DNA of 24,000 nt from Oribacterium sp. C9 (GCF_002007235.1 NZ_MUHW01000025.1:5460-29459); one strand, 5' to 3'; positions 4,019 through 19,918 are shown, counted from the first letter of the stretch. A program made the numbers and translations. The notes: generated by a model not told the origin, from the sequence alone.

Positions 4019-4048
4019 GCCCGGCACTGCACAAAGGCAATGCCGGGC
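4019..4048 (-). terminator. Intercistronic hairpin between tctC and tctB (attenuator or mRNA-stabiliser candidate)
   Basis: GCCCGGCA (4019-4026) pairs with TGCCGGGC (4041-4048), an 8-bp GC-rich stem with a 14-nt loop. On the minus strand it is followed by TGTTTTGGTCTATTTT. This arrangement commonly raises binding-protein expression relative to the permease genes. Confidence 0.4.
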
Positions 4049-4126
4049 AGCTCTTAAGTTTTTGACTTATTTATAATTCAATGAACAACAATTTATACTT
4101 GATAACGTGGATCAATACCTATTTAA

Positions 4127-5230: not shown

Positions 5231-5368
5231 AGTAACTTCCTCCTGTTTACTATATCTTTTTGTATTTTACGTGGTCCCTTCAGGACCCATAATTCAGTTG
5301 TTGTTTGATGCTGCATATCGCAGTTCCGATCAATGTATACGTTATGTTCAGCATCACTGCCATGCCGC

Positions 5369-6187
5369 TTAAAGAAGCAGCTTTAATCCCATGACAAAGA
5401 GCAGTACATAGCTCATTATCATAAATGTTCTCTGGCTCATCCTCTTATAAAGCATGGAGCCTATCTTAAGTCCCGAGAACAGGAACGGTGCTGCCACAAG
5501 TGCACTGAAAACCAGTGCAAGGTTCCAGTAGCCCGACCTGATGTCATCTACAAGCACCATACCGTTCAGAAATATCCATACTGTGGAAATCGTCGTTCTG
5601 AACTGGTTCTTATCCGGCAGCTTCTTCGTCAGATAACTGATGAGCAGTGGTCCTCCGCTGACAAAAATCCCATGTACAATACCGGCTACCGGAAGGAGCA
5701 GATACAGAAGCCTGTCCCTGAGATTTCCTTTTTCAGGATCCCCGGAGGTTTCCTCCCCTGCCTTTACATCCCCTGTGAAAGCAACAGCCTTTTTGTCTCC
5801 TTCTTTCTTACCGGCCCCGCTGTGCATCAGTTCCTTATACAGTCCATGAACAGAGACACATATAACGAAGATGCCCAAAGCGAGATACAGCATTTTCTCC
5901 CTGCCGAAGAGCTGATCCTTGATGAGGATACCAATGAGTATCCCGCATCCCATGATCACAACTATCTTCCAAAGTTCTTTCCAGACCACATGTTTTCTGT
6001 TTCCCAAAAACACATATATGCCGCTCGCTATACCAAGCACATTCAATATAGGCTTAGCCACCGCATATCCCACAAGCATAAGCCCGAAGGGCATGGCCAG
6101 CACAGTTCCTGCGAAGCCTGTGACTCCATGCATGATGTGAGTCAGAAAAATGGCCAGAAAGAATAAAATGTAATTTGTACTTAACAT
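5369..6187 (-). CDS. TauE/SafE (DUF81) family anion exporter; predicted sulfite or organosulfonate exporter
   Basis: 272-aa membrane protein built from two 4-TM halves separated by a charged loop (GAGKKEGDKK...). The N-terminus (THIMHGVTGFAGTVLAMPF) is typical of TauE/SafE. It starts 6 nt after the sulfoquinovosidase stop. Confidence 0.7.
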   Translation of the reverse strand: MLSTNYILFFLAIFLTHIMHGVTGFAGTVLAMPFGLMLVGYAVAKPILNVLGIASGIYVFLGNRKHVVWKELWKIVVIMGCGILIGILIKDQLFGREKMLYLALGIFVICVSVHGLYKELMHSGAGKKEGDKKAVAFTGDVKAGEETSGDPEKGNLRDRLLYLLLPVAGIVHGIFVSGGPLLISYLTKKLPDKNQFRTTISTVWIFLNGMVLVDDIRSGYWNLALVFSALVAAPFLFSGLKIGSMLYKRMSQRTFMIMSYVLLFVMGLKLLL

Positions 6188-6193
6188 TTGTTT

Positions 6194-8194
6194 TTATTTT
6201 CCGTATTTAGCACGTATACTTTCGAACAGCTCTCTGTACTTTGATGCCTTACGGTAAAATACAGGCGTGTCACCAAGCTCCGCTTCTACGACATTGACAC
6301 CATGTCCGTAGCTTCGTCCTGTCCAAAGGTGGATCCACTCGTCATCCGGAAGATATACTTCACGTTCTGTCTGCCCTGCTGTATAAACCGGTGCAACCAG
6401 CACATCTCTTCCGAGTAGATACTCGAACTGCTCCGTGTAGCACCTTTCGTCTTCATAGTGAAGGAACAACGGTCTCTGAACCGGTATTCCCTTTTCATGA
6501 TTTTCCTTTACCGCATCCCTTGTGTACGGTGACATCATAGTGTAAATGTCTACAAGACGTGCCATCCTGCTGATTCCGTCTTCGTCATCATAGAACTGAT
6601 AGCAGTCATCCGGACGGTTTCCCTCGTGGGTTCTCATAACAGGTGTGAATGCTGCCATCTCAGCCCATCTCATGAATACTTCCTTGGTTCTCACATTACC
6701 GAAAAGTGAAGTATATCCGCCGATGTCGCTGTGGCTGATTCCGCATCCCATCATGCCTGTTCCGAGAGCCGCAGAAATGACTGTGCAAAGTCCGTCATGC
6801 CTTGAAAAATCCACTGACTGATCGCCTGCCCAGAGAAGTGTGCAGTACTTCTGGCTTCCGTTGGCGCCCGCTCTCATGAAGTAAACTATCTTTCCGAGAT
6901 TGCCGGACTCCTTGACTGCCTCGTAGTTGCATTTTGCCCAGAGAAGCGGCCAATGATTATGCTCGACCATGGCTGACTTTCCGCTGTAGAGCACGATATC
7001 GTCAGTTGGAAGATATTCGCCGAAATCCGCCATCCAGCCGTCGATTCCTATATCGATGCTGTACTTTTTGATGATTCCCTTGAACCATTCAAAGGCCTCA
7101 GGATTTGTCAGGTCCACAGCACCGCAGTAGAACTCTCCGAAATCCACAAGATATGTTGTACCGTCATGACGCTTTGCGAAATATCCCTTCTCTTCACCTT
7201 CCTTAAACAGCTCTCCATCATTAACGAGATATGGATTCACATATCCGAGGAACTTAACTCCCTTTTTGTGAAGCTCTGCTATCTTCTCAGGAAGGTCAGG
7301 ATACATCTCTTTGTGGAAATGCCAGTCCCACTGAAGTCTCTTTCCGAAGCTGGTAACTCTCTTACCGCACCAGTCCTGACACCAGATTCCGGAGAGCTTT
7401 ACGCCCTTTTCCTGAATCTTTTCTGCGAGACCGAAGGATCTTTCATTTCCGCCCTGTACTCCAAAGATAAGTCCGTTGTAGACCCAGTCCGGAAGCTCAG
7501 GCTGTCTGCCGAAATAAGCTGTTTCCTTTAAAAGGAGCTCCTGAAAATCTTCAGCCGCCTCTATACGGACGGAAGCAGGAACCTCCCAGATCTGAAGCTC
7601 ATGGAATTCATCATTTCTGAAATCGAAATCTGCATAAGCTGTTGAATCAACATGGAGATAATATCTCTTTGATGAAACGAAGGTAGGCTCCGGGTAGTTT
7701 GTATTGTAGTAATCTCCGCCGGCCTTGTTCTCAACGTCTGATCTCCATGTAACATATGTTGTTTTGTCTCTGCCTACTCCCGGTTCAGATGTCCAAAGAG
7801 GGAAATGTCTCCCTCTCAGGTCAAAATATGACATCTGCTCTCCGCAGCCGTAGATGTGTTCATCCTTATCAGCTGCTACTCTGAACCAGAATCTGTTTAC
7901 TGTCGGGTCGTTATTCTCGAACTTTATTTCCGCGCACTCGCCCTTTACAGTAACTGTGGCAGTTATCTTTCCTTCAAAATCAAGGACTGTGGTTCCGTCT
8001 TTTTCCTCAGAAGCTGTAAGCTTCAAAGGAACCTTATCCTCCACATAATCCTCGATCTTGTAGTTTCCTCTGTACATGTCCACAGACTCTTTTCCGTGAC
8101 CGACATATATCAAAGGTCTCTCTGAATCTGCGGAAAGTATTATTCTGTCACCCTCAGCAAGTTTTAATGTCTGCTCTTTAACAAGTAATTCCAT
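6194..8194 (-). CDS. yihQ: GH31 sulfoquinovosidase (YihQ-type)
   Basis: 666 aa. The sequence GIWCQDWCGKRVTSFGKRLQWDW (coords ~7328-7378) has the Q-x12-R-x2-W spacing I recall for the YihQ sulfonate-binding residues (Gln288/Arg301/Trp304). GWMADFGEYLP matches the nucleophile region, LWAGDQSVDFS the acid/base region, and HSDIGGYT carries the Tyr508 equivalent. Confidence 0.8.
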   Translation of the reverse strand: MELLVKEQTLKLAEGDRIILSADSERPLIYVGHGKESVDMYRGNYKIEDYVEDKVPLKLTASEEKDGTTVLDFEGKITATVTVKGECAEIKFENNDPTVNRFWFRVAADKDEHIYGCGEQMSYFDLRGRHFPLWTSEPGVGRDKTTYVTWRSDVENKAGGDYYNTNYPEPTFVSSKRYYLHVDSTAYADFDFRNDEFHELQIWEVPASVRIEAAEDFQELLLKETAYFGRQPELPDWVYNGLIFGVQGGNERSFGLAEKIQEKGVKLSGIWCQDWCGKRVTSFGKRLQWDWHFHKEMYPDLPEKIAELHKKGVKFLGYVNPYLVNDGELFKEGEEKGYFAKRHDGTTYLVDFGEFYCGAVDLTNPEAFEWFKGIIKKYSIDIGIDGWMADFGEYLPTDDIVLYSGKSAMVEHNHWPLLWAKCNYEAVKESGNLGKIVYFMRAGANGSQKYCTLLWAGDQSVDFSRHDGLCTVISAALGTGMMGCGISHSDIGGYTSLFGNVRTKEVFMRWAEMAAFTPVMRTHEGNRPDDCYQFYDDEDGISRMARLVDIYTMMSPYTRDAVKENHEKGIPVQRPLFLHYEDERCYTEQFEYLLGRDVLVAPVYTAGQTEREVYLPDDEWIHLWTGRSYGHGVNVVEAELGDTPVFYRKASKYRELFESIRAKYGK

Positions 8195-8195
8195 G

Positions 8196-8873
8196 TCAAT
8201 AATGAAGCTCCTTATTTGGTCCGATGACTCCTGTGACTGCTCCCTGCTTCACCAGAGGTTCTCTCTCAGGATGACAGATCACCCATTTGTTTCTCTGGAG
8301 AAGAAGTTCGCTTTCCTTGTCTACAGGTGAAAGCTTTTCAAGAGGTGTGTTGGTTCCCTTAGGCAGGATAACAACTCCCTTGAATCCTTCATCAGTCACT
8401 CTGCATGGTGAAAGGTGAAGAGTTGTCTCATACATCTCTATCACTGTGCCCTTCGGTACGAAAAATACCTGCACATCATTTATGTCGTAAGTATTGTCCT
8501 TTATGTCCCAGACATGACCGAGGCAGAGCATGAAGTCTGTTATGGCAATGTTTATCTCGCTGCCCTTGTGATACTCGAAACCGTTGTAGGTGGTATTTCT
8601 TCCGTTGCAGTATCCGATCTCTATCGGCATACCTCCGTAGATCAGGTTTTCAACCTTATCCTTTACAGAAAGGCTCTCCATCTCGAGAACAGATGCCACA
8701 TAGACATTGCCCTGCTCCGGAATGGGAGTTTCCTTTTCCATGTAATCCACAACTTCTGAAAAATCGTATCCTGTGACTACACGTCCGTAGGTCTTGAAGG
8801 CTTCATGATCAAGGACTGACTTGATGGTAACGTCATTAACTTCATTTAAATGCTTTAAAAGCTCCATGATCAC
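8196..8873 (-). CDS. Small cupin-like protein, probably DUF4867 family; candidate SQ/sulfofructose isomerase or accessory protein of sulfo-TAL clusters
   Basis: 225-aa ORF. Its start overlaps the upstream reductase stop by 4 nt (ATGA), and its stop is 1 nt from the yihQ start, so it is tightly translationally coupled within the operon. The beta-rich sequence (GFEYHKGSEINIAI...VFFVPKGTVIEMYETTLHLSPC) looks cupin-like. The family name is recalled, not searched. Confidence 0.55.
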   Translation of the reverse strand: MIMELLKHLNEVNDVTIKSVLDHEAFKTYGRVVTGYDFSEVVDYMEKETPIPEQGNVYVASVLEMESLSVKDKVENLIYGGMPIEIGYCNGRNTTYNGFEYHKGSEINIAITDFMLCLGHVWDIKDNTYDINDVQVFFVPKGTVIEMYETTLHLSPCRVTDEGFKGVVILPKGTNTPLEKLSPVDKESELLLQRNKWVICHPEREPLVKQGAVTGVIGPNKELHY

Positions 8874-9733
8874 ACCTTTTCAGCTCTAACGACCTTAATG
8901 GTTGCTGAGAAGTCTTCCTTTGCATATCCGGCTTCCATAGCCTTGTCGTAAACTCTTACTACGTTCATCTCGCCAGGCATCGGAAGTCCCTTCTCCTCTG
9001 CGAGCTTCTTGCAGATGTTCACATCCTTGTACATATTCTCAATTGAGAATGCTGTAGTGAAATCATTCTTCTCGATAACATCCTTCTTGCTGTCCAGATA
9101 GAAGTTCTGTCCGCCGCCGTAGGAAATAGCTGTTGCGAAGGTCTGGATGTCGATACCGCATACTGCAGCAAGATTTGAAACCTCATTTACGCCGTTCTGG
9201 ATCTGACCAACCAGAGCATTGTGAAGGATCTTCATGGTGATACCTGTTCCGTTCTCACCCATGCGGATGATGTTCTCGCCCATGTATGCAAGGATAGGAC
9301 GAACTGTATCGTAAAGCTCCTCATCACATCCAACATAGATTCCGAGCTTGCCTGCGATAGCCGCCGGCTTTGACTTAACAACAGGAGCATCTGCGAACTG
9401 AGCGCCTGTCTCCTTGACCATCTTTGCGATCTCAACTGATACGCTTGGATCGATGGTACTCATATCGATGCAGATCTTACCCTTGCCGAGCTTCGGAAGG
9501 ATCTGTGTATAAACTGATCTGGAATGCTCTGACTTCGGAACCATGGAAATGATCACATCCGCTTTCTCAGCGAGGTCAACATTGTCTGCAGCTGCAACTG
9601 CACCGAGCTTTACGAGCTCATCAACCTTTTCCTTTACCATGTCTGAGCAGTAAACTGTATCGTTATGCTTCTTGACTATATTTGCACACATTGACTCGCC
9701 CATGATTCCGAGTCCGATAAAACCAATCTTCAT
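8870..9733 (-). CDS. NAD(P)-dependent beta-hydroxyacid dehydrogenase family; predicted 3-sulfolactaldehyde reductase (YihU/SftR-like) producing DHPS
   Basis: The N-terminal Rossmann motif MKIGFIGLGIMG, the 287-aa length and the catalytic-region pattern (GAQFADAPV..SKPAA..G.L) place it in the 3-hydroxyisobutyrate/tartronate-semialdehyde reductase family. Substrate is inferred from operon context. Confidence 0.65.
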   Translation of the reverse strand: MKIGFIGLGIMGESMCANIVKKHNDTVYCSDMVKEKVDELVKLGAVAAADNVDLAEKADVIISMVPKSEHSRSVYTQILPKLGKGKICIDMSTIDPSVSVEIAKMVKETGAQFADAPVVKSKPAAIAGKLGIYVGCDEELYDTVRPILAYMGENIIRMGENGTGITMKILHNALVGQIQNGVNEVSNLAAVCGIDIQTFATAISYGGGQNFYLDSKKDVIEKNDFTTAFSIENMYKDVNICKKLAEEKGLPMPGEMNVVRVYDKAMEAGYAKEDFSATIKVVRAEKV

Positions 9734-9803
9734 TATCTTTTATCTCCATTCCTTAGTGCTCTCATGTGCAATGTCTACACAGAGCGCTTTTATCTGCTTT
9801 TTA

Positions 9804-10490
9804 TTACTCTGTCTTTGTGTTGTCCCATGCATCACAGAAGGTTCCGATACCCTGTGTTGTAAATGCGTGGTGCTGAGCACTCTTGTAGATCGCAAGACCA
9901 GCTGTGATGATGTCTGCACCTGCTACTGCACAGTCAACCATCTGCTTAGGTGAACGAAGAGCTGCACAAATGATCTGTGTCTTTCCGTAGAAGCCGTAGT
10001 TCTTGTAGATGTCAACGATGTCCTTGATGTACTGCTTGCAATCCTCACCGTTGTCCTCTTTCCATCCGATGAAAGGTGATACGAAAAGTGAACCGTTCTT
10101 TGCTGCGAAAATAGCCTGTGCAGGAGCAAATACAAGTGTAAGGTTTGTTCTGATGCCTTCCTTCTCAAGCTGTCTTGCTGCTGCTACACCAGCCTCTGTT
10201 GCAGGAATCTTGATGGCGAAGTTTGGAGAAACCTTTGCATACTTTCTTGCTTCAACTACCATATCCTCTGTCTTGTCAAGGTGTGGGTTGATCTCTATTG
10301 ATACAGGGAACTTGTCGATACCCTCAAGACCATTTTCCTTGATCCAGTTTGCGATATCAGTTATAGCTGTTACAAATGGCTTGCCACTGAGCATGATGTG
10401 CTTTGGATTTGTTGTTACACCATCGATGCCAAATGTCTTGTACGCATAATCAATCTCATCTAACTTTGCACTGTCTAAAAAGAACTTCAT
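9804..10490 (-). CDS. sftT: Class I transaldolase of the FSA/TalC subfamily; predicted 6-deoxy-6-sulfofructose transaldolase
   Basis: 228 aa. MKFFLDSAKLDEI...GVTTNPKHI and the Schiff-base lysine context FAIKIPAT align with E. coli FsaA/TalC (VKVPVT). A strong GGAGGAGG RBS is present. Substrate is inferred from the neighbouring sulfoquinovosidase and reductase. Confidence 0.75.
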   Translation of the reverse strand: MKFFLDSAKLDEIDYAYKTFGIDGVTTNPKHIMLSGKPFVTAITDIANWIKENGLEGIDKFPVSIEINPHLDKTEDMVVEARKYAKVSPNFAIKIPATEAGVAAARQLEKEGIRTNLTLVFAPAQAIFAAKNGSLFVSPFIGWKEDNGEDCKQYIKDIVDIYKNYGFYGKTQIICAALRSPKQMVDCAVAGADIITAGLAIYKSAQHHAFTTQGIGTFCDAWDNTKTE

Positions 10491-10560
10491 TACTTCCTCC
10501 TCCGGATGGGATATATAAATCTCATTCGCAATAATTAGTTAATTAATTTAATTAATTAGT

Positions 10561-10588
10561 ATTATAGTGTAGGTTGCACAATTGTAAA
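10561..10588 (-). promoter_or_regulatory. Sigma-A type promoter of the transaldolase-to-exporter operon
   Basis: On the minus strand there is a -35 TTTACA (10583-10588), a 16-nt spacer and a perfect -10 TATAAT (10561-10566). The predicted TSS is ~10553, about 60 nt before the ATG at 10490. Confidence 0.5.
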
Positions 10589-10728
10589 GAGCGTTTTCGA
10601 CCATAAATGCATCATAATTTTGTTTTTGTGAATTATATATCAATTAGCCTATTAATTTTATCCAAATTGCCCTCTTTTCACATTCCTGTTTTTGTGGTAA
10701 ATGCGGACAAGCACTTATAAAACCACAT

Positions 10729-10777
10729 AAAAAAGCTTCCACAGGCATCATCAGGATGCCGGCAGAAGCCTCTTTTT
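10729..10777 (-). terminator. Rho-independent terminator after the alcohol dehydrogenase gene (bidirectional in appearance)
   Basis: GCTTC..GGCATC (10735-10749) pairs with GATGCC..GAAGC (10755-10769): 6 + 5 bp with a 4x4 internal loop and a 5-nt loop. It is flanked by A6 (10729-10734, a U-tract on the minus transcript) and T5 (10773-10777). It starts 15 nt past the stop at 10784. Confidence 0.6.
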
Positions 10778-10783
10778 AAATTA

Positions 10784-11941
10784 TCAGATTGCCTTCTTAT
10801 AAAGCATGATGCAGTCCTTGAGTGTGGTCTGGCGAGGGTTTGCCATGATATTTGCCTGACCCTTCATGGCATCTTCAGCCATGGCATCGATCTTGTCCTC
10901 TGTTACACCTACATCAGAAAGCTTCTCAGGGATACCCAGCTGCCTGTTGAGTCTCTTTAACTCCTCCACCAGCATTTCAGGTCTGAAATTCACTACAGGT
11001 CCATTTTCCTCTCTGATGTATCTGTAGATCTTCTCGTACTTTCCGTCGTGGTCGGCGATTGCATTGAACTCAGCCACATAAGGAAGGAGGATAGCATTGG
11101 CAACACCGTGAGCTACATGGAAATGTCCGCTTACAGGGTGGCTTAAGGCGTGAACGTCGCCGAGTCTCGCCCATGCAAATGATATTCCCGCGAAATTTGA
11201 GCCGAGCATCATGGCACTGGCTGCCTCAGGATCCTTACGGTTTGCAGTGAAACGGCGGAGATTCTTGCCGATAAGCTCCATAGCCTTCTCTGCCATGGCA
11301 TCTGAGAAAGGTGTTGCGTTGTTTGAAACGTATGCCTCCATGGCATGAATGAGGGCATCGATACCACAGGATGCAGCAACGGATGCGGGAGCTGTCATGA
11401 TAAGCTCAGGATCGAGAACTGCAAACTTTGGGATCTGCTCATAGCTGAAAACAGACATCTTGAAGTTGGTAACTTCATCTGTGATAACAGCACTGGCTGT
11501 AACTTCGCTTCCTGTTCCGGCTGTTGTGGGTACTGCGATGATAGGTGTGATAGGGCCGGGAACCTTACCTGTACCTACGTACTGCTGGATCTCGCCACCG
11601 TATGTTGCAAGAACACCTACAGCCTTGGCAACATCCATAGGGCTTCCGCCGCCGAGAGCTATGATACTGCTGGCACCTGACTTTTTATACTGCTCTGTTG
11701 CGTCCTTAACACATGCAACTGTCGGGTTCGGCATAACATCGAGGAAAGCTGTGCACTTGATGCCGGATACCTCGATAAGATCCCTTACCTTCGCAACAAC
11801 ACCTATTCCTTCAAGTCCTCTGTCAGAAACCAGAAATACATGCTCTGACTTCATTTCGCCCTTTAAAAGCTCAGGAATCTCCTTGAGACTTCCTACACCG
11901 AATTTTATAGTCTGTGGAATTTTAAAACAAAAATCATTCAT
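10784..11941 (-). CDS. Iron-containing (group III) alcohol dehydrogenase, FucO/DhaT-like; predicted aldehyde/ketone reductase acting on the glycyl-radical-enzyme product
   Basis: 385 aa. It has the GGGSPMDVAK nucleotide-binding motif and metal-ligand His clusters (DALIHAME, HALSHPVSGHFHVAHG). GAAGGGG lies 7 nt before the ATG. Confidence 0.85.
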   Translation of the reverse strand: MNDFCFKIPQTIKFGVGSLKEIPELLKGEMKSEHVFLVSDRGLEGIGVVAKVRDLIEVSGIKCTAFLDVMPNPTVACVKDATEQYKKSGASSIIALGGGSPMDVAKAVGVLATYGGEIQQYVGTGKVPGPITPIIAVPTTAGTGSEVTASAVITDEVTNFKMSVFSYEQIPKFAVLDPELIMTAPASVAASCGIDALIHAMEAYVSNNATPFSDAMAEKAMELIGKNLRRFTANRKDPEAASAMMLGSNFAGISFAWARLGDVHALSHPVSGHFHVAHGVANAILLPYVAEFNAIADHDGKYEKIYRYIREENGPVVNFRPEMLVEELKRLNRQLGIPEKLSDVGVTEDKIDAMAEDAMKGQANIMANPRQTTLKDCIMLYKKAI

Positions 11942-12036
11942 AATTATACCCCTTCTCTATTATCCCCTTCTCATTAACCGTAAAGAGACCTGTTTTAAGT
12001 GACACATCCTGTGTCATATTATGACATAAGTGTCAT

Positions 12037-12082
12037 AAGTCTATCTCCCACTTGTGCTTGCACAAAAGTAGGAGATAGACTT
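12037..12082 (-). repeat. 46-nt near-perfect hairpin in the GRE-ADH intergenic region
   Basis: AAGTCTATCTCC (12037-12048) is the exact reverse complement of GGAGATAGACTT (12071-12082). The inner ACTTGTGC/GCACAAAAGT extends the stem with a 2-nt bulge. No U-tract follows on the transcribed strand. Confidence 0.5.
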
Positions 12083-12234
12083 CATGACACGCCACACATG
12101 GAGCATGGAAGGACGCTTTAGCGGCCTGGGAGTGCGGAATGTGGGAGAATCGTGAGAGCGCTCTGCGCGGAACGATTCTATGTCGACTTTTGACACTCAC
12201 GTCATATTATATTAAAAATCATATACCCGGCTAA

Positions 12235-14718
12235 TCAGAAACTAAGTTCAGTTCTCTGTATCAGATCCTTCTGGAGCGCCTTTCCGAGCTCTACAAAGTA
12301 CGCACTGTATCCGGCAACTCGCACCAGCATATCCTTGTAGTCTTCAGGATGCTTCTGAGCCGCCCTCATGGTGGCGGAGCTCATGATATTGAACTGTACA
12401 TGCATGGCTCCATGCTTTATGTACTGGTCGATAAATGCGATCATGTTGTCTCTTCCCTCTATTCCGGCAACTGCCTCCTGAGGGAATTTCATATTCATGA
12501 GAGTTCCGTTTCCCGCCTTGCTGTGATCAACCTTCGATACGGAATTTGTCAGGGCTGTCGGTCCCATCACATCATGGGAGCCTCCATCTGTGTGCACAGG
12601 TCCCATATTGTCGGAGATGGCCTCTCCCATCTTTCGGCCGTCAAGAGTTGCATTGGTCACCATACCCATGGCGACATTGGCATTGACAGAATATACTCCC
12701 GGATTGAACTGTCCGCCCTTTCTGTAGGTCTTTCTACCGCTGATATGACCTGTGTAACAATCGAACATGAACTTGAAAAGCTCATCTGCGTAATCATCGT
12801 CGTTACCGTAGTGATGAACCTTGGAACCGTTCACAAGAGCATACAGCATCTCATGTCCCTTCCAGTTGTCCTTTACAGCCTGAAGGAGCTCCGCGCCTGT
12901 CACCTTATGCTCGTCGAACATAAGCTGTTTGATAGTTGCCAGTGAATCGGTGCAGGTTCCGAGGCCGCTTGCCTGAGGACCGATACCGTTATACTTTGCG
13001 CCTCCCTCAGTAAGATCCTTTCCTGTGTCCATGCAGTTCTGGAAGAATGCCGATACATATGGAATCGGTTTTCTGTGCTCATGAGCCGCTTCGATGATAT
13101 TGAGACTTGAACACATCTGGTCGCACCAGTAGTCGAACTGCTTATCTATGCTTTTAAGAACCTCATCAAAGTTCTTATATGTCTCGAGGCTTCCGGTATC
13201 CGGTCCGAACTGCTCTTCGGAATCCAGGAACTTTCCTCCGTTGATGACCATTTCAAGCATCTTCGGGGTGTTTACATAAGCCGCATCATGCCATCCGTAC
13301 TCTGCTCCCGGAAGGTCAGGCTCAACGCATCCTACTACGCAGTAGTCTCTTGCTTCTTCGAGAGACATGCCCTTACCGAGCATTGCCTTTATGGCAGGTG
13401 CATCATTGAAAAGCTTTGGATGACCGAAGCCCGCACGTATACATTCAACGGTTTTTACCTTAAGCTCATAAGGTGTCTTTTCCGATAAACGAACACAGAT
13501 CCATGGAACCATCATCCTCGTATGCTCTGAAGCTTCCAGAACAAGAAAGGTAAGGTCGTTTGTGGCATCATTGCCATCCCTGTCGAGGCCGCCTATGGTG
13601 AGGCTTTCTCCTCCGAAGCCACGACCGTTTCTTACTGCGGTTGACCCCCAGTCCTTGAGCTTCGTCGGATTGTTAAGCTTCACGAACTGATCCTCAAGTA
13701 TCTCCAGAGCCTGCATCTTGGTGATCACACCGTCATCTATGTCAGCCTTATAGTACGGGTACAGCCATTGATCCATTCTTCCGTAGGATATGGAATGACC
13801 GTTACTTTCGATGGTGATAAGGGTCGTTGCAAAGTTAAAAAGCTGTACTGCCTGCCAGAAGGATCTCGCCGGACCTCCTGCGATCTGATGACAGTTAAAT
13901 GCCATCCTTTCAAGCTCTGCTTTCCTCTTTGTATCCTTTTCTTTTTCCGCATACTCTTCCGCAAGATCAGCATATCTTTCGATGTATGCCACCGATGCCG
14001 AAAGCTCTATGATCATGGCATCGTAAAAATCTCTCTTATCGGAGAACTCAGGGTCCTTCCTTGATAATGCTTCTCTCTTTTCCTTTGCCTCCGCAATAAG
14101 CCCGTTGAAACCCAGCTTCATGAGCTTTCCGTAATCTATGGCCAGATGTCCGGTGCCTGCGTAATGATATAGATTGGTCTGGAAGATCTTCTTCCCGGCT
14201 TCCGAGCCTTTGATCTGTTCGTCATCAAGACGCCCCTCTACTTCATCCGCAACGGTTCTGCCCTGCCACCACTTACAAAGCTCGATGGCCTCCTGCTTCT
14301 CCTCTTCACTTCTGAAATAGAACTGATCATGCTCTCTGTCTTCAAAAGGATGGTTTACTGCCTCATCAAGTATCCAGTTCACGGAAAATTCCGGATAGAT
14401 GGGTGACGCTTTCGTGGGAGCGGCATTATCACCCAATATAAGCTCCTGATCGTAGATATAGAGTGTCACATTTTCAAGGATGTGCTTAAAGGCATATGCA
14501 CACTGAAGCTTCGCAGGCGCTTTTGGATGTGCCTTGTAGGATTCCGTCACGAGACGAAGCCGCTCTATGTCTATCCAGTATTTTTTATCCAGAAATTCCT
14601 GCCTCAGATAGTTGATTCTCGGAAAGGGTGACCAGTCCTTGTGATGCACCTCATAACCCAGATGGCACTGATGATCAAAGGGTTCTGTCCCCTTTGCATT
14701 TGTATGATACTCCGTCAT
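12235..14718 (-). CDS. Glycyl radical enzyme of the dehydratase/eliminase (PFL2) class; by context a DHPS-converting enzyme (HpfG-type dehydratase or HpsG-type sulfolyase)
   Basis: The C-terminal glycyl-radical motif is MLVRVAGYSAYF (Gly codon at 12310-12312). The Cys loop is VVGCVEPDLPG, with a single Cys (13327-13329) followed by x-Glu as in glycerol dehydratase, CutC and IslA, not the CC pair of PFL. I set the start at ATG 14718 (MTEYHTNAKG) because AGGAGG lies 6 nt upstream; the track ORF extends to 14763. Confidence 0.9.
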   Translation of the reverse strand: MTEYHTNAKGTEPFDHQCHLGYEVHHKDWSPFPRINYLRQEFLDKKYWIDIERLRLVTESYKAHPKAPAKLQCAYAFKHILENVTLYIYDQELILGDNAAPTKASPIYPEFSVNWILDEAVNHPFEDREHDQFYFRSEEEKQEAIELCKWWQGRTVADEVEGRLDDEQIKGSEAGKKIFQTNLYHYAGTGHLAIDYGKLMKLGFNGLIAEAKEKREALSRKDPEFSDKRDFYDAMIIELSASVAYIERYADLAEEYAEKEKDTKRKAELERMAFNCHQIAGGPARSFWQAVQLFNFATTLITIESNGHSISYGRMDQWLYPYYKADIDDGVITKMQALEILEDQFVKLNNPTKLKDWGSTAVRNGRGFGGESLTIGGLDRDGNDATNDLTFLVLEASEHTRMMVPWICVRLSEKTPYELKVKTVECIRAGFGHPKLFNDAPAIKAMLGKGMSLEEARDYCVVGCVEPDLPGAEYGWHDAAYVNTPKMLEMVINGGKFLDSEEQFGPDTGSLETYKNFDEVLKSIDKQFDYWCDQMCSSLNIIEAAHEHRKPIPYVSAFFQNCMDTGKDLTEGGAKYNGIGPQASGLGTCTDSLATIKQLMFDEHKVTGAELLQAVKDNWKGHEMLYALVNGSKVHHYGNDDDYADELFKFMFDCYTGHISGRKTYRKGGQFNPGVYSVNANVAMGMVTNATLDGRKMGEAISDNMGPVHTDGGSHDVMGPTALTNSVSKVDHSKAGNGTLMNMKFPQEAVAGIEGRDNMIAFIDQYIKHGAMHVQFNIMSSATMRAAQKHPEDYKDMLVRVAGYSAYFVELGKALQKDLIQRTELSF

Positions 14719-14894
14719 ATATATCCTCCTGATGAAACGCCGGTCTTTGATATGGATAAGCAAAGCCGACGCTGCATATCTATATATGATGATGTAAAAG
14801 AGAAAAGTTGATCACGAAACATCAACTGAAGAAATACCATGTCCAACATCCTGCTGTGGATGCCGGACATGAACACAGAAGACTGTATCCGCCG

Positions 14895-15845
14895 TCACTT
14901 TCCGGTCCTGGTACCCACAAGACATTTAATGCCTCTCTCATTGAAGTATTCTGCTATCTTTTCCACCCGCCTCTGAAAACTCGGGCGGTTGAACTTCAGA
15001 TTTTTCATGGGATATTCCTGTCCCAAAGACTCATACTTCTCGATACCTAGGCGCATAAAGCTCAGAAGCTGCAGCACCTCTATGTTGTTGTTAAGTTCTT
15101 CCTTAATGAAATCCGCAGAAGCTTTTATATTCTCTTCATCATCATTTATATGTGGGATCACAGGGATGCGCAGTATGGTATCTATATTTTGTCCGGAAAG
15201 TTTTTTCAGATTCTCGCGAATCAGCTCATTGCCAACGCCGGTATATACGCGATGCTTGGTGCTGTTCATCAGTTTAAGATCAGAGATCACAAGGTCCGTA
15301 TAGGGAAGCACCTTTTCAACCTCGTTCCATGAAACGGAAAAAGTGGATTCCAAACAGGTATGAATGTTCTCCTCTTTACATCTCTTAAACAGCTCTCTTA
15401 CGAAATCTGCCTGAAGCAGAGGCTCTCCGCCGGAAACAGTCACTCCGCCTCCGGACTCTTCATAATAACCCTTGTCTCTCAGAATAATCTCCATGCATTC
15501 CTGAACCGACATCTTCTTTCCCCAGCTTCTTATGGCGTCCGAGGGACAATTATCCCCGCATACCATACATCCCTGGCAATCAGCTCTTTCAAGTCTCACA
15601 GGCTTGTTCCTGAAAAACTGCAGTACATTATCCTTCGGACAGACTGCCTTGCAGGCACCGCACTGCTTCAGTCCTATGCATTTTTTCTTATAAAGCCCCG
15701 GTTCTATTCCGGGCTTCTGACTCTCCGGATTGCTGCACCATCTGCACCTCAGTGGGCATCCCTTGAGAAAAAGCTCTGTCCTCATTCCCGGTCCGTCATG
15801 TATGGTAAATCTCTGAATATTAAAAACAATTCCTTCTGTACTCAA
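14895..15845 (-). CDS. Glycyl-radical-enzyme activating enzyme (radical SAM, with two auxiliary ferredoxin-like clusters)
   Basis: The N-terminus FNIQRFTIHDGPGMRTELFLKGCPLRCRWCSNPES carries CxxxCxxC. It is followed by CIGLKQCGACKAVCP and CQGCMVCGDNCP, and GGVTVSGGEPL is the SAM-binding motif. The start codon at 15845 is TTG with GGTGA 4 nt upstream. Confidence 0.9.
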   Translation of the reverse strand: MSTEGIVFNIQRFTIHDGPGMRTELFLKGCPLRCRWCSNPESQKPGIEPGLYKKKCIGLKQCGACKAVCPKDNVLQFFRNKPVRLERADCQGCMVCGDNCPSDAIRSWGKKMSVQECMEIILRDKGYYEESGGGVTVSGGEPLLQADFVRELFKRCKEENIHTCLESTFSVSWNEVEKVLPYTDLVISDLKLMNSTKHRVYTGVGNELIRENLKKLSGQNIDTILRIPVIPHINDDEENIKASADFIKEELNNNIEVLQLLSFMRLGIEKYESLGQEYPMKNLKFNRPSFQRRVEKIAEYFNERGIKCLVGTRTGK

Positions 15846-16028
15846 TTAGTCACCTATCCTTAGTTTACCTTCAATTCCTTTACATATACGTTCGAGAGTG
15901 TCCTACATAGCCTTACTCTTGCCAAGTTCCAGCCGAAGAATCTCTTCCCGAGACATGTCCGATCCTGCCCTTGACTATGTTATATTCTAGGCATAAACGG
16001 CAGAATTTAATATTACCCCTATTGCTTA

Positions 16029-16057
16029 TTTATATAGGGAATGTTCCTTATTTTCAA
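16029..16057 (-). promoter_or_regulatory. Sigma-A type promoter candidate for the activase-GRE-ADH operon
   Basis: On the minus strand there is a -35 TTGAAA (16052-16057), a 17-nt spacer and a -10 TATAAA (16029-16034). This implies a ~175-nt leader before the TTG start at 15845. Confidence 0.45.
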
Positions 16058-16093
16058 ATGGATGTAAACAGTTCTGTCAAGCCAAAAGAATAA

Positions 16094-16128
16094 GCACATC
16101 ACTGTCGTTTTCCGACATAATGATGTGC
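16094..16128 (-). terminator. Terminator-like hairpin distal to the RT gene and its 3' structured element
   Basis: GCACATCA (16094-16101) pairs with TGATGTGC (16121-16128), an 8-bp stem with a 19-nt loop. On the minus strand it is followed by TTATTCTTTT. Confidence 0.4.
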
Positions 16129-16136
16129 CATATCAC

Positions 16137-16273
16137 AAAAAACGGGCGGGGTTCCATTGAATGGCTGTGCCGTCAAAAACACACCCTTACAGCGGCCGTC
16201 TGCCGAGCCGTTTTTTGCCGAAGAGCTGTTTTCTGTGCAGACGCGCATATGTATGCGCACCCGCCCGTTTTTT
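16137..16273. ncRNA. 137-nt multi-helix structured element (candidate RT-associated ncRNA); strand not resolvable from sequence
   Basis: A perfect 14-bp closing stem pairs AAAAAACGGGCGGG (16137-16150) with CCCGCCCGTTTTTT (16260-16273), enclosing 109 nt. The enclosed region contains CGTCTGC/GCAGACG (16197-16203 / 16237-16243), the palindrome GCGCATA-TG-TATGCGC (16243-16258) and CCAT/ATGG (16154-16164). The element begins 35 nt after the RT stop codon. Confidence 0.4.
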
Positions 16274-16308
16274 CATTATGATGGTGGTGTTAAAAAAACA
16301 GTTTAAAT

Positions 16309-17547
16309 CTATATCCTTTTATCATTCTCATCGATACCATGATAGAAGGCATGAACCAGTGTACGGTATCCCATTCTTTGCATAGTCTTATATCGGACCC
16401 TGTATTTGGAATCAGTTCTCTTGCCTCCGCTTCCGACATAGCGTATACATTCCTGACAGTAATTGTCAAGCTTACGGAGACTGTCACAACGAGTCAGTAT
16501 CCTGAAGGACCAGTCAACCCAGTTGAGCTCGTTGGTATCAAGTCCTCTTCCGAAAAAATACATATCTATCCTGTCTATCATTTTCTTCATGGTCTCTTCT
16601 CTGGACAAACCATACTTTTTTTGACACCTCACCAGCTTTCTGGCTTTGTGATTCATACGCCACATTATGGATTTCATAGAATGCTTTGATATATCATACT
16701 CTCGTCCTTCTATGGAAAAACCAAGAAGATCAAATTTCTCCCCGGGCATAAGTATATCTGTTTTATCTTCATTAAATGAAAGTCCTCTTTCTGAAAACAG
16801 ATCCTTAAGCTTTATGTATATCCCTTTGGCCTCCTCCTGAGACGATGAAAAAATCGCTATATCATCTGCATAGCGACAGTAATAATCGCATTCCTTCCTG
16901 ATAAGCATATCTACGTCTTTAAGGTAAACATTCTCAAAAAATGTGGTCAGGGGACATCCGCTAAGGGCTCCTGTAGAACCTTCCATGAGCCTGCCGTCAG
17001 CATAAAACCGTCCCCTCATCAAAAGTGTCCTTAAAAACCAGCAAAGATCCGGATCTGTATCTTTAAATAAAGCATCAAGCATATCCGCAAGAATACCGGG
17101 CTGAAGACTGTCTCCATAGCTTTTAATATCTGATTTCAGGACCCATTTGGTATTACACAGATCATTCTTTCTTATGTCATAAAATATTCTGGAAACATGC
17201 TTTCCGATTCTGAAAGAATAGACCGAATCTTCATAAATATCATCATAATCATGAAGCACAAAGGCCATGAGCTTCATGAGCATCTTCTCTTCAGCTAAAA
17301 AACGGTATATGGTCCTTTTTTTCTGGCTGCTTTTCTTTTTAAGTAAGGTCCTGTGAGGTATGGACAGAAAAAAATCACGGTTACAGAGACGTTTTATATC
17401 CGTTTTACATTTATCTGAAAGGATATACTCCTTTAATTCGGCAAGTTCTTCCGGGCTTATGTTATATGAACCTTCCTTTCTCAAAAGGAAAGCATCCCGA
17501 ACCTCGGGAGATAGCATTTTTTCAAAAACAGTTGCTGTATTATTCAT
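16309..17547 (-). CDS. Stand-alone reverse transcriptase (RNA-directed DNA polymerase), group-II-like/unclassified lineage, with no endonuclease or other fused domain
   Basis: 412 aa with RT motifs in order: KKKSSQKKRTIYRF (1), EEKMLMKLMAFVL (2), WVLKSDIKSYGDSL (A/3), GALSGCPLTTFFENVYL (B/4), YCRYADDIAIF (C/5, YADD at 16861-16872), LSFNEDKTDIL (D/6) and FDLLGFSI (E/7). A ~130-aa helical thumb/X-like tail follows (MIDRIDMYFFGRG...LRKLDNYCQECIRYV). Confidence 0.85.
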   Translation of the reverse strand: MNNTATVFEKMLSPEVRDAFLLRKEGSYNISPEELAELKEYILSDKCKTDIKRLCNRDFFLSIPHRTLLKKKSSQKKRTIYRFLAEEKMLMKLMAFVLHDYDDIYEDSVYSFRIGKHVSRIFYDIRKNDLCNTKWVLKSDIKSYGDSLQPGILADMLDALFKDTDPDLCWFLRTLLMRGRFYADGRLMEGSTGALSGCPLTTFFENVYLKDVDMLIRKECDYYCRYADDIAIFSSSQEEAKGIYIKLKDLFSERGLSFNEDKTDILMPGEKFDLLGFSIEGREYDISKHSMKSIMWRMNHKARKLVRCQKKYGLSREETMKKMIDRIDMYFFGRGLDTNELNWVDWSFRILTRCDSLRKLDNYCQECIRYVGSGGKRTDSKYRVRYKTMQRMGYRTLVHAFYHGIDENDKRI

Positions 17548-17675
17548 CTTTTCATGCCCCCTGAATAAACATGGAGTGCCGGTATAAACCGGCTCTAATA
17601 TACTACAACAGCTTATTTTTTACCATTTTATCATAGCCGGCTCATGCCGTAAAGATAGCCATCACAGGACGCAAC

Positions 17676-17684
17676 TGATATAAT
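17676..17684 (+). promoter_or_regulatory. Extended -10 promoter element for the ABC exporter operon
   Basis: TGATATAAT matches the TGnTATAAT extended -10 consensus exactly. The -35 region is weak. The predicted TSS at ~17691-17693 argues against the GTG 17694 start and for ATG 17724. Confidence 0.45.
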
Positions 17685-17723
17685 ACAAGGTAAGTGTATG
17701 GTTATTTTTTGAGGACATGTACC

Positions 17724-19913
17724 ATGAACATAAATATCCCTATAACGATACAGATGCATTCCGCCGAAAACGCAATTGCTGTGATAGCTTCCATGCTCGG
17801 GGCCTACGGAAGATTCGAGCCCCTTGAAAAGCTGCGCGAAAAAACAGTGGCTTCCAGAAACGGTTCCACTCCCGAACAGCTTTCGGATATGGCAGAGCAG
17901 TTCGGACTGGATACGGAAATTCTGAATATTTCAAAAGATGACATCTGTAAGCAGACTTTCCCACTGGTGGCCTTCTGGAAGAAAAGGTATTACTGCATAG
18001 TAAAAAAGATAGACGGAGAAAGGGTATATGTCATGGATCCTTCAAAGGGAAATGTATGCCTGCCTCTTTCATTTTTTAAAGACAGATTCTCCGGCATCAT
18101 GATAAGGATGGTTCCCGGTGACGGTTTTTTAAAAAGCGGAACCAGGCCCCGGATATTTAATATTATCTTCCGGCGCATGAAGGGAATGGAGGCCGTACTT
18201 ATAAAGGTCATCATCCTTAACATCCTCGCTGTGGTACTGAATCTTATCATGATCAACAGCCAGAGGATCCTGCTTGATATGGCATCAGATACAACAGGAG
18301 CTTCCGGATTTACTTCGCCCTTAAACCATCAGCTTATGATGAAGCTCCCGACCCCGCTCCAAAATACCTCAGGCCTTATTCTGGCCACGATGTATGTGTC
18401 TCTTGCCCTTCTTACCATTGTTAATGTTTTAAAAACTCTCTTCATCTTCAGATCAGCTTTTTTGAATGCTGCAAAATCTGAATCAGCCCTCTTTAAGAAG
18501 CTGTTTGCCCAGCCTCTTCAGTTTTTTGAGCAGTACAGCATCGGTGAGCTGATGCAGCGTATAGACACCAATAAGAATCTGAGCATGTCTCTCATCAGAA
18601 GCATAGTCCCAAGATTTCTGGATCTGCTGATGGTCTTGCTTTATGGTATTCAGATGTTCCTGTTTAACCCTGTGCTGGGCGTCCTCTGTCTTCTGGTGGA
18701 GATAATCTATCTTATACTGTCCGGTATCCTTCAGTCTGAGATCGCAAACCGGGCCAGAGTTCTAAGTACAAGTGCAAATTCCATGAACTCCGTCACCTTA
18801 AGCGGTCTTGGAAACATTGAAACCATCAAGGCCGGCGGTGTGGAAAGGGTCTTTTTTTCAAGATGGAACAAGGCACAGCGTCTTTACCGCGAAAGTCGTT
18901 TTGACAATATAAATATCAAACAGGCATCCACAGCTCTGAACGGATTCCGTTCCGTCTTTTCGCAGGGCATGATACTGTTTGCAGGCGCGTATTTCATCAT
19001 AAAGGGGAATTTCACTCTTGGAATGATGGCAGCACTTCAGTCAATTCTTGCAAACCTGAGAAAAAGCCTCTCAAACTGCGTTCAGACCGTAAACTCTCTT
19101 CAAAGCACCAGAACCAGCATAGAACGGGTCGAAGACATCGAAAACAGACACCTGAGAAATGAGATACCTCTTCATGAAAAGGAAGAACCGGTACAATTTC
19201 CCGGAAATCTGGAAGTAAAGAATATTGTATTCCGGTACAATGCCGGTGATCCTCCCGCCATTCAGGATGTATCTCTATCCGTAAAAAGCGGTGAGATCAT
19301 CGCTATCGTGGGAGAAAGCGGCTGCGGAAAGACGACTCTCCTTAAATGCATAGGAGACATGTATCAGCCCGAATCCGGAAGCATCCTATATTCGGGAAAA
19401 GAAAGAGCGGCCATTCCTGATGTGGTATTTCATTCATCTCTTGCAATGGTCAATCAGGAAGTAATGACGTTTCAGGATACCATCATGTCCAATATAACCC
19501 TATGGGATTCCACCATAGCAAATTATGACGTTATCATGGCCGCCAATGAGGCCCAGATCCATAAACGGATAATGAGGGATCGAGACGGATATTACGGGTC
19601 TGTTCTTGAAAACGGCAAAAATTTTTCAGGGGGAGAGCTCCAGAGGATGGACCTGGCAAGAGCTCTTGCAAAGGAACCCACTCTGCTCCTGCTGGATGAA
19701 TTCACATCATCCCTTGATGCTCTGACTGAAGAGAAGGTTTTTGAAGCTTTACGAAAAAAGGGCACCACCTGTATCATTTCGGCCCACAGACTTTCCACTG
19801 TTGCATCCTGTGACCGTATTTACTGCATGGAAAAGGGGCGAATTGTTGAAAGCGGAACTCATAATGAACTTATGGAGATGGACGGTCTTTATAAACGGCT
19901 GGTCAATGCTTAG
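17724..19913 (+). CDS. ABC exporter (TMD-NBD) with an N-terminal catalytically inactive C39-peptidase-like domain
   Basis: The N-terminus IQMHSAENAIAVIASMLGAYG aligns to the C39 motif Q-x4-[DE]CG...YYG, with the Cys position occupied by Asn (17769-17771). FWKKRYYCIV stands in for the His-containing strand (His to Tyr, 17988-17990). Six TM segments follow. The NBD has Walker A GESGCGKTT, signature FSGGELQRM, Walker B LLLLDEFTSSLD and H-loop SAHRLST. The start is set at ATG 17724 with GAGGA 8 nt upstream. Confidence 0.85.
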   Translation: MNINIPITIQMHSAENAIAVIASMLGAYGRFEPLEKLREKTVASRNGSTPEQLSDMAEQFGLDTEILNISKDDICKQTFPLVAFWKKRYYCIVKKIDGERVYVMDPSKGNVCLPLSFFKDRFSGIMIRMVPGDGFLKSGTRPRIFNIIFRRMKGMEAVLIKVIILNILAVVLNLIMINSQRILLDMASDTTGASGFTSPLNHQLMMKLPTPLQNTSGLILATMYVSLALLTIVNVLKTLFIFRSAFLNAAKSESALFKKLFAQPLQFFEQYSIGELMQRIDTNKNLSMSLIRSIVPRFLDLLMVLLYGIQMFLFNPVLGVLCLLVEIIYLILSGILQSEIANRARVLSTSANSMNSVTLSGLGNIETIKAGGVERVFFSRWNKAQRLYRESRFDNINIKQASTALNGFRSVFSQGMILFAGAYFIIKGNFTLGMMAALQSILANLRKSLSNCVQTVNSLQSTRTSIERVEDIENRHLRNEIPLHEKEEPVQFPGNLEVKNIVFRYNAGDPPAIQDVSLSVKSGEIIAIVGESGCGKTTLLKCIGDMYQPESGSILYSGKERAAIPDVVFHSSLAMVNQEVMTFQDTIMSNITLWDSTIANYDVIMAANEAQIHKRIMRDRDGYYGSVLENGKNFSGGELQRMDLARALAKEPTLLLLDEFTSSLDALTEEKVFEALRKKGTTCIISAHRLSTVASCDRIYCMEKGRIVESGTHNELMEMDGLYKRLVNA

Positions 19914-19918
19914 AAGCT

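Follow-up and report, generated by a model that had tools for sequence, protein, structure and literature searches.

A predicted HpfGHD extension of a sulfo-transaldolase gene cluster in Oribacterium, from sulfoquinovose to 3-hydroxypropanesulfonate

In the 24,000-nucleotide (nt) stretch of DNA from Oribacterium sp. C9 that we analysed (the window, with positions counted from its first letter), genes for a radical-SAM activase, a glycyl radical enzyme (GRE) and an iron-type alcohol dehydrogenase (Fe-ADH) adjoin a gene cluster for the degradation of sulfoquinovose (SQ) by way of a sulfofructose (SF) transaldolase, the sulfo-TAL pathway. We consider it probable, at roughly 80%, that these three genes are hpfH, hpfG and hpfD, and that they form an extension of the adjoining cluster that would carry SQ past 2,3-dihydroxypropane-1-sulfonate (DHPS) to 3-hydroxypropanesulfonate (3-HPS). 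The original prediction, made from the sequence without database searches, had offered HpfG-type dehydration of DHPS and HpsG-type cleavage of its C–S bond as alternatives; the former is borne out, in that the activase and the GRE pass the HpfH and HpfG cut-offs, the dehydratase residues are intact, and the GRE and the Fe-ADH are 73% and 67% identical to their Klebsiella counterparts.

Gene identities were drawn from Pfam, from the curated NCBIfam models with their equivalog cut-offs, from bit-score ranking against the Protein Data Bank (PDB), and from identity to relatives in hpf clusters. Against the HpfG equivalog (NF048009; cut-off 1000), the GRE scores 1554.5 bits. Its longest open reading frame (ORF) spans 12235-14763; the start is most likely the ATG at 14718, which gives 827 amino acids (aa), in line with the gene call on the source contig (the Logan assembly of SRR8449972), also of 827 aa, and with the alignment of residues 8-827 to positions 1-824 of the 824 in the HpfG model. 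Both motifs named in the original prediction can be read in the translation: a single Cys in VVGCVEPD, within the C-x-E motif of 1,2-eliminases (GCVEP; C464, E466), and the glycyl radical motif RVAGYS (G803). In our alignment, H164, H281, S282, C433, E435 and D447 of glycerol dehydratase are all retained, as H191, H308, S309, C464, E466 and D478, and these catalytic residues and the radical Gly are kept in 99-100% of 80 homologues. These 80 homologues and their loci, which come from 80 species-level genomes and were compared over the flanks that were fetched, form our comparison set (L numbers denote loci). The GRE is 73% identical over 827 aa to that of a Klebsiella hpf cluster (L083; a congener, not the exact K. 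oxytoca protein of the 2020 study) and 72% identical to the HpfG of Enterococcus raffinosus, and the genome with the closest GRE is that of Lachnospiraceae bacterium JC7 (98% amino-acid identity), with those of rumen Oribacterium species next (90-91%).

The activase scores 532 bits against the HpfH equivalog (NF048008; cut-off 500) and 326 against the HpsH model (cut-off 430), and it carries the radical-SAM motif CPLRCRWC (CX3CX2C) together with two extra ferredoxin-like Cys clusters. Its gene lies 176 nt upstream of hpfG. Between the hpfH stop and hpfG there is a 15-bp stem-loop with a weak T tract (14837-14872, minus strand), which may act as a partial terminator, or as a site of processing by which the ratio of activase to GRE is set.

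The Fe-ADH gene lies directly downstream of hpfG. Its product matches PF00465 (164 bits) and PF25137 (184 bits) over the full length, HpfD being itself a member of the Fe-type ADH family (PMC9594981), and inspection of its translation by eye shows GGGSPMD and His/Asp segments typical of Fe-type metal sites. Its identity to the hpf-cluster ADHs of Klebsiella, E. raffinosus and Hungatella effluvii is 67%, 66% and 70%, respectively; these come from congeners and are distinct from the assayed HpfD proteins (H. hathewayi, Enterococcus gilvus R2XLL6). An orthologue (58-98% identity) occurs within the flanks of 41 of the 80 HpfG loci. In the NCBIfam scan it passed no curated equivalog model, and no curated HpfD model exists; a large protein search returned thousands of matches named 'iron-containing alcohol dehydrogenase' and no entry named HpfD. 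The best solved relatives, at about 240-270 bits, are methanol dehydrogenase, alcohol dehydrogenase 2, 1,3-propanediol oxidoreductase and lactaldehyde reductase, and the match to 1,3-propanediol oxidoreductase parallels the pairing of glycerol dehydratase with DhaT. By linkage, the assignment of the Fe-ADH as HpfD, the predicted 3-sulfopropionaldehyde reductase, is well supported.

The window holds 31 ORFs of at least 100 aa, and 16 long ones were taken as genes. According to the ORF listing and the Pfam and NCBIfam scans, a minus-strand array runs uninterrupted from a ROK-family regulator (1-378) to a reverse transcriptase (16309-17547), and all ORFs of the hpf and sft modules are intact, with models matched over their full length. 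The features are as follows.

1-378, minus strand: ROK-family (NagC/Mlc-like) regulator, N-terminal 126 aa, cut by the window edge (translation; weak NagC and Mlc matches)
493-1833, minus strand: sftI-like, putative sulfoquinovose isomerase (NF048012 SftI, 414 bits, cut-off 700)
1942-3507, minus strand: TctA (Pfam TctA, 437 bits)
3514-4032, minus strand: TctB (Pfam TctB, 69 bits)
4127-5230, minus strand: TctC-like binding protein (Pfam TctC, 24 bits, below its cut-off)
5369-6187, minus strand: TauE/SafE-type, putative sulfonate exporter, sftE (PF01925, 79 bits)
6194-8194, minus strand: GH31 sulfoquinovosidase, sftG/yihQ (NF007746, 971, cut-off 553)
8196-8873, minus strand: sftX, DUF4867 (PF16161, 258 bits)
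8870-9733, minus strand: sftR-like, putative sulfolactaldehyde reductase of the beta-hydroxyacid dehydrogenase family (NAD_binding_2/11 domains)
9804-10490, minus strand: TAL/FSA transaldolase, SF-transaldolase SftT (PF00923; best PDB match 8bc3)
10561-10588, minus strand: sigma-70-like promoter of the sft unit, TTTACA-16-TATAAT (by consensus match only, 11/12)
10723-10775, minus strand: intrinsic terminator after hpfD (long interrupted stem and U tract)
10784-11941, minus strand: hpfD-like, putative NADH-dependent Fe-ADH, 385 aa (PF00465 and PF25137, full length)
12235-14718, minus strand: hpfG, predicted (2S)-DHPS dehydratase, GRE of 827 aa (NF048009; PF02901 and PF01228)
14895-15845, minus strand: hpfH, radical-SAM activase, 316 aa, TTG start (NF048008)
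16033-16052, minus strand: 20-bp palindrome AATAAGGAACATTCCCTATA, putative operator in the hpfH promoter (sole match in the window)
16309-17547, minus strand: reverse transcriptase (PADLOC RT_UG26)
17694-22090, plus strand: two ABC-transporter genes (domain scans)
22151-23344, minus strand: LuxR/GerE-type one-component regulator (GerE helix-turn-helix)

The activase, GRE and Fe-ADH genes are thus real minus-strand ORFs and, as had been claimed, lie directly upstream of the SQ-to-DHPS genes on the same strand, where an apparently complete sulfo-TAL gene set was found; the TauE/SafE gene reported downstream on that strand is likewise present.

Among the sft genes, the transaldolase has as its best solved relative the sulfofructose transaldolase of Bacillus megaterium (BmSF-TAL, 8bc3), at 282 bits versus 153 for an ordinary transaldolase, and the sulfoquinovosidase matches 6pnr (1142 bits), the Agrobacterium sulfoquinovosidase 5ohy (812) and E. 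coli YihQ 5aed (799). The SftR candidate scores 146 against the YihU model (cut-off 348), and its PDB matches are generic HIBADH enzymes only; its place in the canonical sft gene order suggests the assignment. For SftI, NF048012 is the sole NCBIfam match, over the full length, and orthologues at 67-72% identity stand beside hpf genes in four loci (L009, L016, L043, L047). Sft clusters typically include DUF4867 (SftX) and TauE (SftE) (Frommeyer 2020, PMC7491151), and the TauE/SafE protein of the window, 27% identical to the TauE at the hpfE position of E. raffinosus, is the only exporter candidate in the cluster. TctABC is presumed to be a tripartite tricarboxylate-type importer for SQ or SQ-glycerol, and is syntenic with sft genes in eight loci of other genera (L015, L028, L051, L052, L054, L056, L043, L047) and in two Oribacterium loci (L005, L066). 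The ROK protein is a candidate regulator of the sft unit; its adjacency to sftI recurs in L043 and L047. An AT-rich near-palindrome, ACTAATTAATTAAATTAATTAACTAATTATT, lies at 10530-10560 (minus strand), immediately downstream of the sftT -10 box, and a related sequence, AATACTAAATAAT, lies upstream of sftI; the former is perhaps the operator at which the ROK regulator would control the sft unit. Because no PF00171 aldehyde dehydrogenase and no ADP-forming CoA ligase of the succinyl-CoA-ligase type (PF08442/PF02629) is found among the window's 16 long genes, the oxidative HpfXYZ branch is absent from it.

Under the proposed route, SQ or SQ-glycerol would be taken up, presumably by TctABC, with the sulfoquinovosidase freeing SQ, which SftI would convert to sulfofructose. 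SftT would then move a C3 unit to glyceraldehyde-3-phosphate, giving fructose-6-phosphate and sulfolactaldehyde, and SftR would reduce the latter to (S)-DHPS with NADH. HpfG, once activated by HpfH, would convert DHPS to 3-sulfopropionaldehyde by a radical C–O elimination like that of glycerol dehydratase, and HpfD would reduce this aldehyde to 3-HPS with a second NADH; the two NADH sinks per SQ in the original prediction are correct as a stoichiometric inference. The C–S bond would stay intact along the whole route, zero sulfite would be formed, and the product would leave through the single TauE-type exporter. Model and structure matches show, at the level of sequence, to which families HpfG, HpfH, the sulfoquinovosidase and the SF-transaldolase belong. 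For HpfD, SftR, SftI, the importer and the exporter, roles are suggested by family membership and conserved gene linkage, and 3-HPS as a real product in these cells is a prediction.

Several points weigh against this reading. For this organism the route is predicted from its genes, and that genes need not suffice is known from Enterocloster clostridioformis YL32, which has hpfGHD and the sft genes and gave no conversion of DHPS to 3-HPS in pure culture (PMC12330013); that it stopped at DHPS means that gene presence does not guarantee flux. Orthology with HpfD is proposed from linkage and from identity to uncharacterised neighbours, SftR and SftI do not reach the cut-offs of the corresponding curated models (YihU and SftI), and the dedicated HpfE exporter of stand-alone hpf islands is missing from the cluster. 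As for the presumed regulator, its gene stands 6.3 kb from its presumed target, and both its ligand and its binding to the palindrome at 16033-16052 are putative.

A different account, which we regard as unlikely, is that the hpf unit serves, under its own regulation, as an electron sink for DHPS from any source, uptake from other fermenters included, or is mostly silent, such that SQ fermentation would end mainly in excreted DHPS. The arrangement of signals in the window is in keeping with it. The terminator after hpfD has a folding energy of -26.9 kcal/mol (z = -4.89 versus shuffled sequences), and TTTACA-16-TATAAT before sftT, with 11 of 12 consensus matches, is the best promoter-like site in 300-17800; from this pair, the modules are adjacent and co-oriented, but probably do not form one operon. 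In JC7 (L001 13655-19292) and three Oribacterium genomes (L002, L003, L004), 5.6-6.9 kb of unrelated genes stand between hpfD and sftT, a block that is absent from the window, L005 and L066, and these inserts also make hpf and sft separate units; we conclude that hpfHGD and the sft genes are probably separate transcription units. No operator common to the upstream regions of hpfH and sftT was found, the palindrome being present at hpfH only, 64 of the 80 HpfG loci have no sft gene in the fetched flanks, and YL32, as noted, stopped at DHPS. The 5.6-kb segment of JC7 was itself considered as a possible site of HpfXYZ, which its contents rule out: a 771-aa protein with choline-binding repeats, a DUF5640 protein and, on the opposite strand, a 307-aa protein with no Pfam match.

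What stands against an independent sink is, first of all, the recurrence of linkage. In 16 of the 80 loci (12 with the whole sft set and 4 with parts of it), hpf and sft genes stand together, and this occurs in three architectures across several families: hpfHGD followed by sft genes in the window, Oribacterium, Brotaphodocola and Gemmiger; sft genes followed by hpfHGD in Faecalibacterium/Oscillospiraceae, Mediterraneibacter and Faecalicatena; and a divergent order in Dysosmobacter and its relatives. Linkage in three architectures argues for selection for linkage. The stand-alone hpf islands of Klebsiella, E. raffinosus, Hungatella and lactobacilli include a TauE-type hpfE whose identity to the TauE of the window is 26-30%, and the two examined in detail, those of Klebsiella and E. 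raffinosus, also have a DASS-type transporter; fused clusters have neither the HpfE nor the DASS-type importer of these two islands, which fits an internal supply of DHPS. Moreover, Enterococcus gilvus makes 3-HPS from SQ (PMC11489063).

If the GRE and the Fe-ADH were instead a glycerol (or 1,2-propanediol) dehydratase and a DhaT-like 1,3-propanediol dehydrogenase, they would dispose of the glycerol of SQ-glycerol and have no action on DHPS. Glycerol is a by-product of SQ-glycerol hydrolysis, and the closest solved structure to the GRE is indeed glycerol dehydratase (653 bits), all of whose catalytic residues are kept, ahead of propanediol dehydratase (555), 9RCO (542), CutC (about 465), HypD (439), IseG/IslA (385/370) and HpsG (6LON, 351); for the Fe-ADH, the top-ranking solved relatives include DhaT and FucO (238-244 bits). 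We nevertheless consider this very improbable, since the GRE is only 40.6% identical to the Clostridium butyricum enzyme versus 64-98% within the HpfG family and 73% to the Klebsiella protein, and passes the HpfG cut-off by a wide margin. The same cassette also adjoins TauE sulfonate exporters in stand-alone islands. Furthermore, the loop that holds Y339, Q340 and N341 in glycerol dehydratase is replaced in the GRE by VRNGRGFGGES, in which R363, R366 and E371 are invariant among the 80 homologues, as expected for an anionic substrate. On these grounds R363 and R366 are likely to form the sulfonate pocket of HpfG, for which no structure exists (PMC13450708); the pocket residues are drawn from our own alignment, and not from the model of Liu et al. 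2020. The third-best solved relative of HpfG, 9RCO, is an 816-aa 'Glycyl radical protein' of unstated function that is nearer to it than CutC or HypD.

That the GRE is an HpsG/IslA-type C–S lyase, with sulfite leaving through TauE (a family with members annotated as sulfite exporters) and the Fe-ADH reducing hydroxyacetone or acetaldehyde, as an Fe-ADH could, is next to negligible in probability, given that the GRE scores only 522 bits against the HpsG equivalog (NF048011; cut-off 1000), that HpsG (6LON) and IslA/IseG (370-385 bits, which also makes isethionate an unlikely substrate) are among its weakest eliminase matches, that the dehydratase His (H191, glycerol dehydratase H164) and Asp (D478) are kept, and that the hairpin aligned to glycerol dehydratase 639-645, the presumed site of the second sulfonate-binding Arg of C–S lyases, reads VYSVNAN and has no Arg. 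We therefore reject the sulfite and hydroxyacetone alternative of the original prediction: judged by its sequence, the GRE is an HpfG-type C–O eliminase and not a C–S lyase. In C–S lyases the sulfonate-binding triad is Arg/Gln/Arg, in HpsG R183, Q187 and R672 (PMC13450708).

How an HpfGHD extension would be controlled is suggested by the LuxR-type regulator and the palindrome. The regulator carries a GerE helix-turn-helix (HTH) at residues 342-394 and has no Pfam match on its N-terminal 330 aa. Aligned end to end, it shares 49% identity with the E. raffinosus regulator whose gene directly precedes hpfH. Of the 80 HpfG loci, 44 have an orthologue ahead of hpfH, usually at a distance of 90-490 nt, and Klebsiella has one there too; in the window and JC7 the distance is about 6.3 kb, the gap holding the reverse transcriptase and the two ABC genes. 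Modelled with AlphaFold (pLDDT 81.6), the protein has two sensor-like alpha/beta domains as well as a long helix and the HTH, and a Foldseek search with this model returned VqmA, CviR/RhlR/QscR, EL222 and PAS-GAF modules, with high probabilities and low TM-scores. The model supports a fold class, namely a PAS/GAF-like sensor joined to a LuxR HTH, and points to no specific relative or ligand.

The palindrome AATAAGGAACATTCCCTATA is the sole match in the window, where 0 are expected by chance. Of the 74 loci over which its consensus, TATAGGGAAnnTTCCCTATA, was counted, 33 have it no more than 400 nt upstream of hpfH, against 7 hits elsewhere in 1.35 Mb; the E. raffinosus copy is perfect, and a copy is present in Klebsiella as well. 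A -10-like hexamer, TAATAT, 18 nt downstream places the box near -41, the usual position for activators of the LuxR type, and we infer that the palindrome is a putative operator of the regulator. Good copies are also found directly upstream of hpfG in two Oribacterium-type genomes (L003 9899-9916, between hpfH and hpfG; L002 34-51), and none is found there in the window. A permissive Rfam scan of 10400-17800 matched Clostridiales-1 RNA alone, and no riboswitch or leader was found in the approximately 190-nt 5' region of hpfH.

These observations would have the hpf unit driven from the palindrome-bearing promoter, recognised by the conserved LuxR-type regulator, whose ligand is probably DHPS, and the sft unit driven from its own promoter, probably answering to the ROK regulator. 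With a DHPS-sensing regulator on the hpf promoter, SQ-derived DHPS would switch on its own further reduction. We propose tentatively, at somewhat less than even odds, that the regulator with its tandem PAS/GAF-like domains and the palindrome TATAGGGAAnnTTCCCTATA constitute an undescribed sulfonate-responsive switch, with DHPS or 3-sulfopropionaldehyde as ligand, that joins the SQ and DHPS modules in series. Regulator and palindrome accompany hpfHG from Gammaproteobacteria to Bacilli and Clostridia, and this pair is the only element here that may be undescribed; no published description of the regulator was found in the literature covered, which was without the 2020 PNAS paper. If the switch exists, it would toggle cells between excretion of DHPS, which passes to sulfite respirers and on to hydrogen sulfide (H2S), and formation of 3-HPS, which Bilophila cannot use, and it would offer a natural DHPS biosensor and a handle on the amount of dietary sulfonate sulfur that reaches H2S.

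Several features of the locus suggest insertion or exchange. In comparison with JC7, the DNA of hpfG and hpfD (10790-14757) is only 93.5% and 91.1% identical, with flanks on both sides at 97-98% and the proteins still at 98%, a mosaic pattern that points to recombination between alleles in the hpfGD segment. The gap from the hpfG stop to the hpfD start contains, in antisense orientation, a full-length Clostridiales-1 RNA (RF01699; 12022-12185, plus strand), at 111 bits versus a gathering score of 48, inside a segment (11963-12236) flanked by 26-nt inverted repeats. This segment of about 274 bp is absent in JC7, where hpfG and hpfD are about 20 nt apart, and Oribacterium loci have weaker copies at other positions (L004 14190-14304; L003 6375-6491), behaviour that resembles that of a dispersed or mobile element. 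The reverse transcriptase matches PADLOC RT_UG26 ('unknown group 26') over the full length (333 bits), is 100% identical in JC7, and reaches only 98 bits against the group II intron model (cut-off 300), and Rfam detected no intron RNA. A role in defence may be proposed for this enzyme, whose gene is inserted between the hpf regulator gene and hpfH. The first of the two ABC exporters has an N-terminal C39 peptidase domain, of the type found in bacteriocin or peptide export. Elsewhere, the gap between the regulator gene and hpfH holds different insertions (5.7 kb in L004 and 4.6 kb in L020), such that it looks like an insertion hot spot.

With respect to what has been published, the window is an ordinary new instance of extended sulfoglycolysis, in rumen-type Lachnospiraceae. 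'Extended sulfoglycolytic pathways', with HpfG and HpfD inside sulfo-EMP (Embden-Meyerhof-Parnas) clusters, as in Vibrio scophthalmi, or sulfo-TAL clusters, as in E. gilvus, were described by Wei et al. 2022 (PMC9594981); SQ-grown E. gilvus makes 3-HPS and 3-sulfopropionate, with SQ-to-3-HPS variants in several bacteria (Chen et al. 2024, PMC11489063); and hpfGHD together with the transaldolase pathway has been reported in metagenome-assembled genomes of E. clostridioformis and E. aldenensis, with mention of Faecalibacterium prausnitzii (2025, Microbiome, PMC12330013). The novelty implied by the original prediction therefore falls away, as HpfGHD-extended clusters of both kinds were on record, and its premise that DHPS always passes to a second organism is outdated in view of the same three studies. 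Our literature search found no paper tying Oribacterium to sulfoquinovose, and no mention of Oribacterium or JC7 was found in the searched supplement of the iScience papers. The value of the present case is incremental, consisting of a new host group, a linkage of hpf and sft that has arisen in several arrangements, and a candidate regulator with its operator. The end product sets which organism next uses the sulfonate: DHPS and 3-sulfopropionate feed sulfite-respiring bacteria and H2S formation, and Bilophila wadsworthia is unable to use 3-HPS (PMC11489063). If the proposed route operates, this rumen Oribacterium-like lineage would divert plant sulfolipid sulfur away from sulfide, and would do so by a fully redox-balanced fermentation without H2 or formate, for which stoichiometric inference gives acetate, CO2 and 3-HPS from SQ.

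Among known systems, that of E. gilvus ATCC BAA-350 (PMC11489063; predicted in PMC9594981) likewise has sulfo-TAL genes clustered with HpfG, HpfH and HpfD and takes SQ past DHPS to 3-HPS in one organism. The window differs in that it has neither HpfX (PF00171) nor HpfYZ (PF08442/PF02629), and hence lacks the ATP-yielding oxidative branch to 3-sulfopropionate; it has one TauE exporter and no separate HpfE, its importer is of the TctABC type where E. gilvus has the SqvU sugar transporter, and its host is a rumen-type Lachnospiraceae and not an Enterococcus. The stand-alone HpfGHDE islands of Klebsiella (oxytoca group) and Hungatella hathewayi were described by Liu et al. 2020, as cited in PMC11489063, and those of Klebsiella and E. 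raffinosus (L082) share with the window the LuxR-type regulator, the palindromic box, hpfH, hpfG and the Fe-ADH gene (73% identity for HpfG, 67% for the ADH and 49% for the regulator). Unlike the window, they have an extra TauE-type HpfE and a transporter of the DASS family (Na+/sulfate symporter-like), and no SQ genes; in the window, importer and exporter are those of the sft cluster, and the regulator gene is 6.3 kb off.

Enterocloster clostridioformis and E. aldenensis (PMC12330013) are, like the host of the window, Clostridia with both modules, and the locus tags of SftI, YihQ, SftR and SftT (I5Q83_09270, 09300, 09310 and 09315; PMC12330013) imply the same relative order as in the window. 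In YL32, however, about 260 genes, judged by locus tag, separate the modules, and no 3-HPS was formed in culture, whereas in the window the modules are adjacent. The B12-independent glycerol dehydratase of C. butyricum (1R8W), with DhaT, resembles the predicted system in its radical dehydration of a 1,2-diol, its catalytic residues and the reduction of the resulting aldehyde by an Fe-ADH as an NADH sink; the GRE of the window, at 40.6% identity, differs from it in the loop with two invariant arginines and in its predicted substrate, a sulfonated diol. Lastly, HpsGH of Bilophila wadsworthia (6LON) is, as predicted for the window, a GRE system acting on (S)-DHPS, but one that cleaves the C–S bond to give sulfite and hydroxyacetone and so feeds sulfite respiration, whereas the GRE of the window fails the HpsG model, is distant from the HpsG structure (351 bits), and would leave that bond intact.

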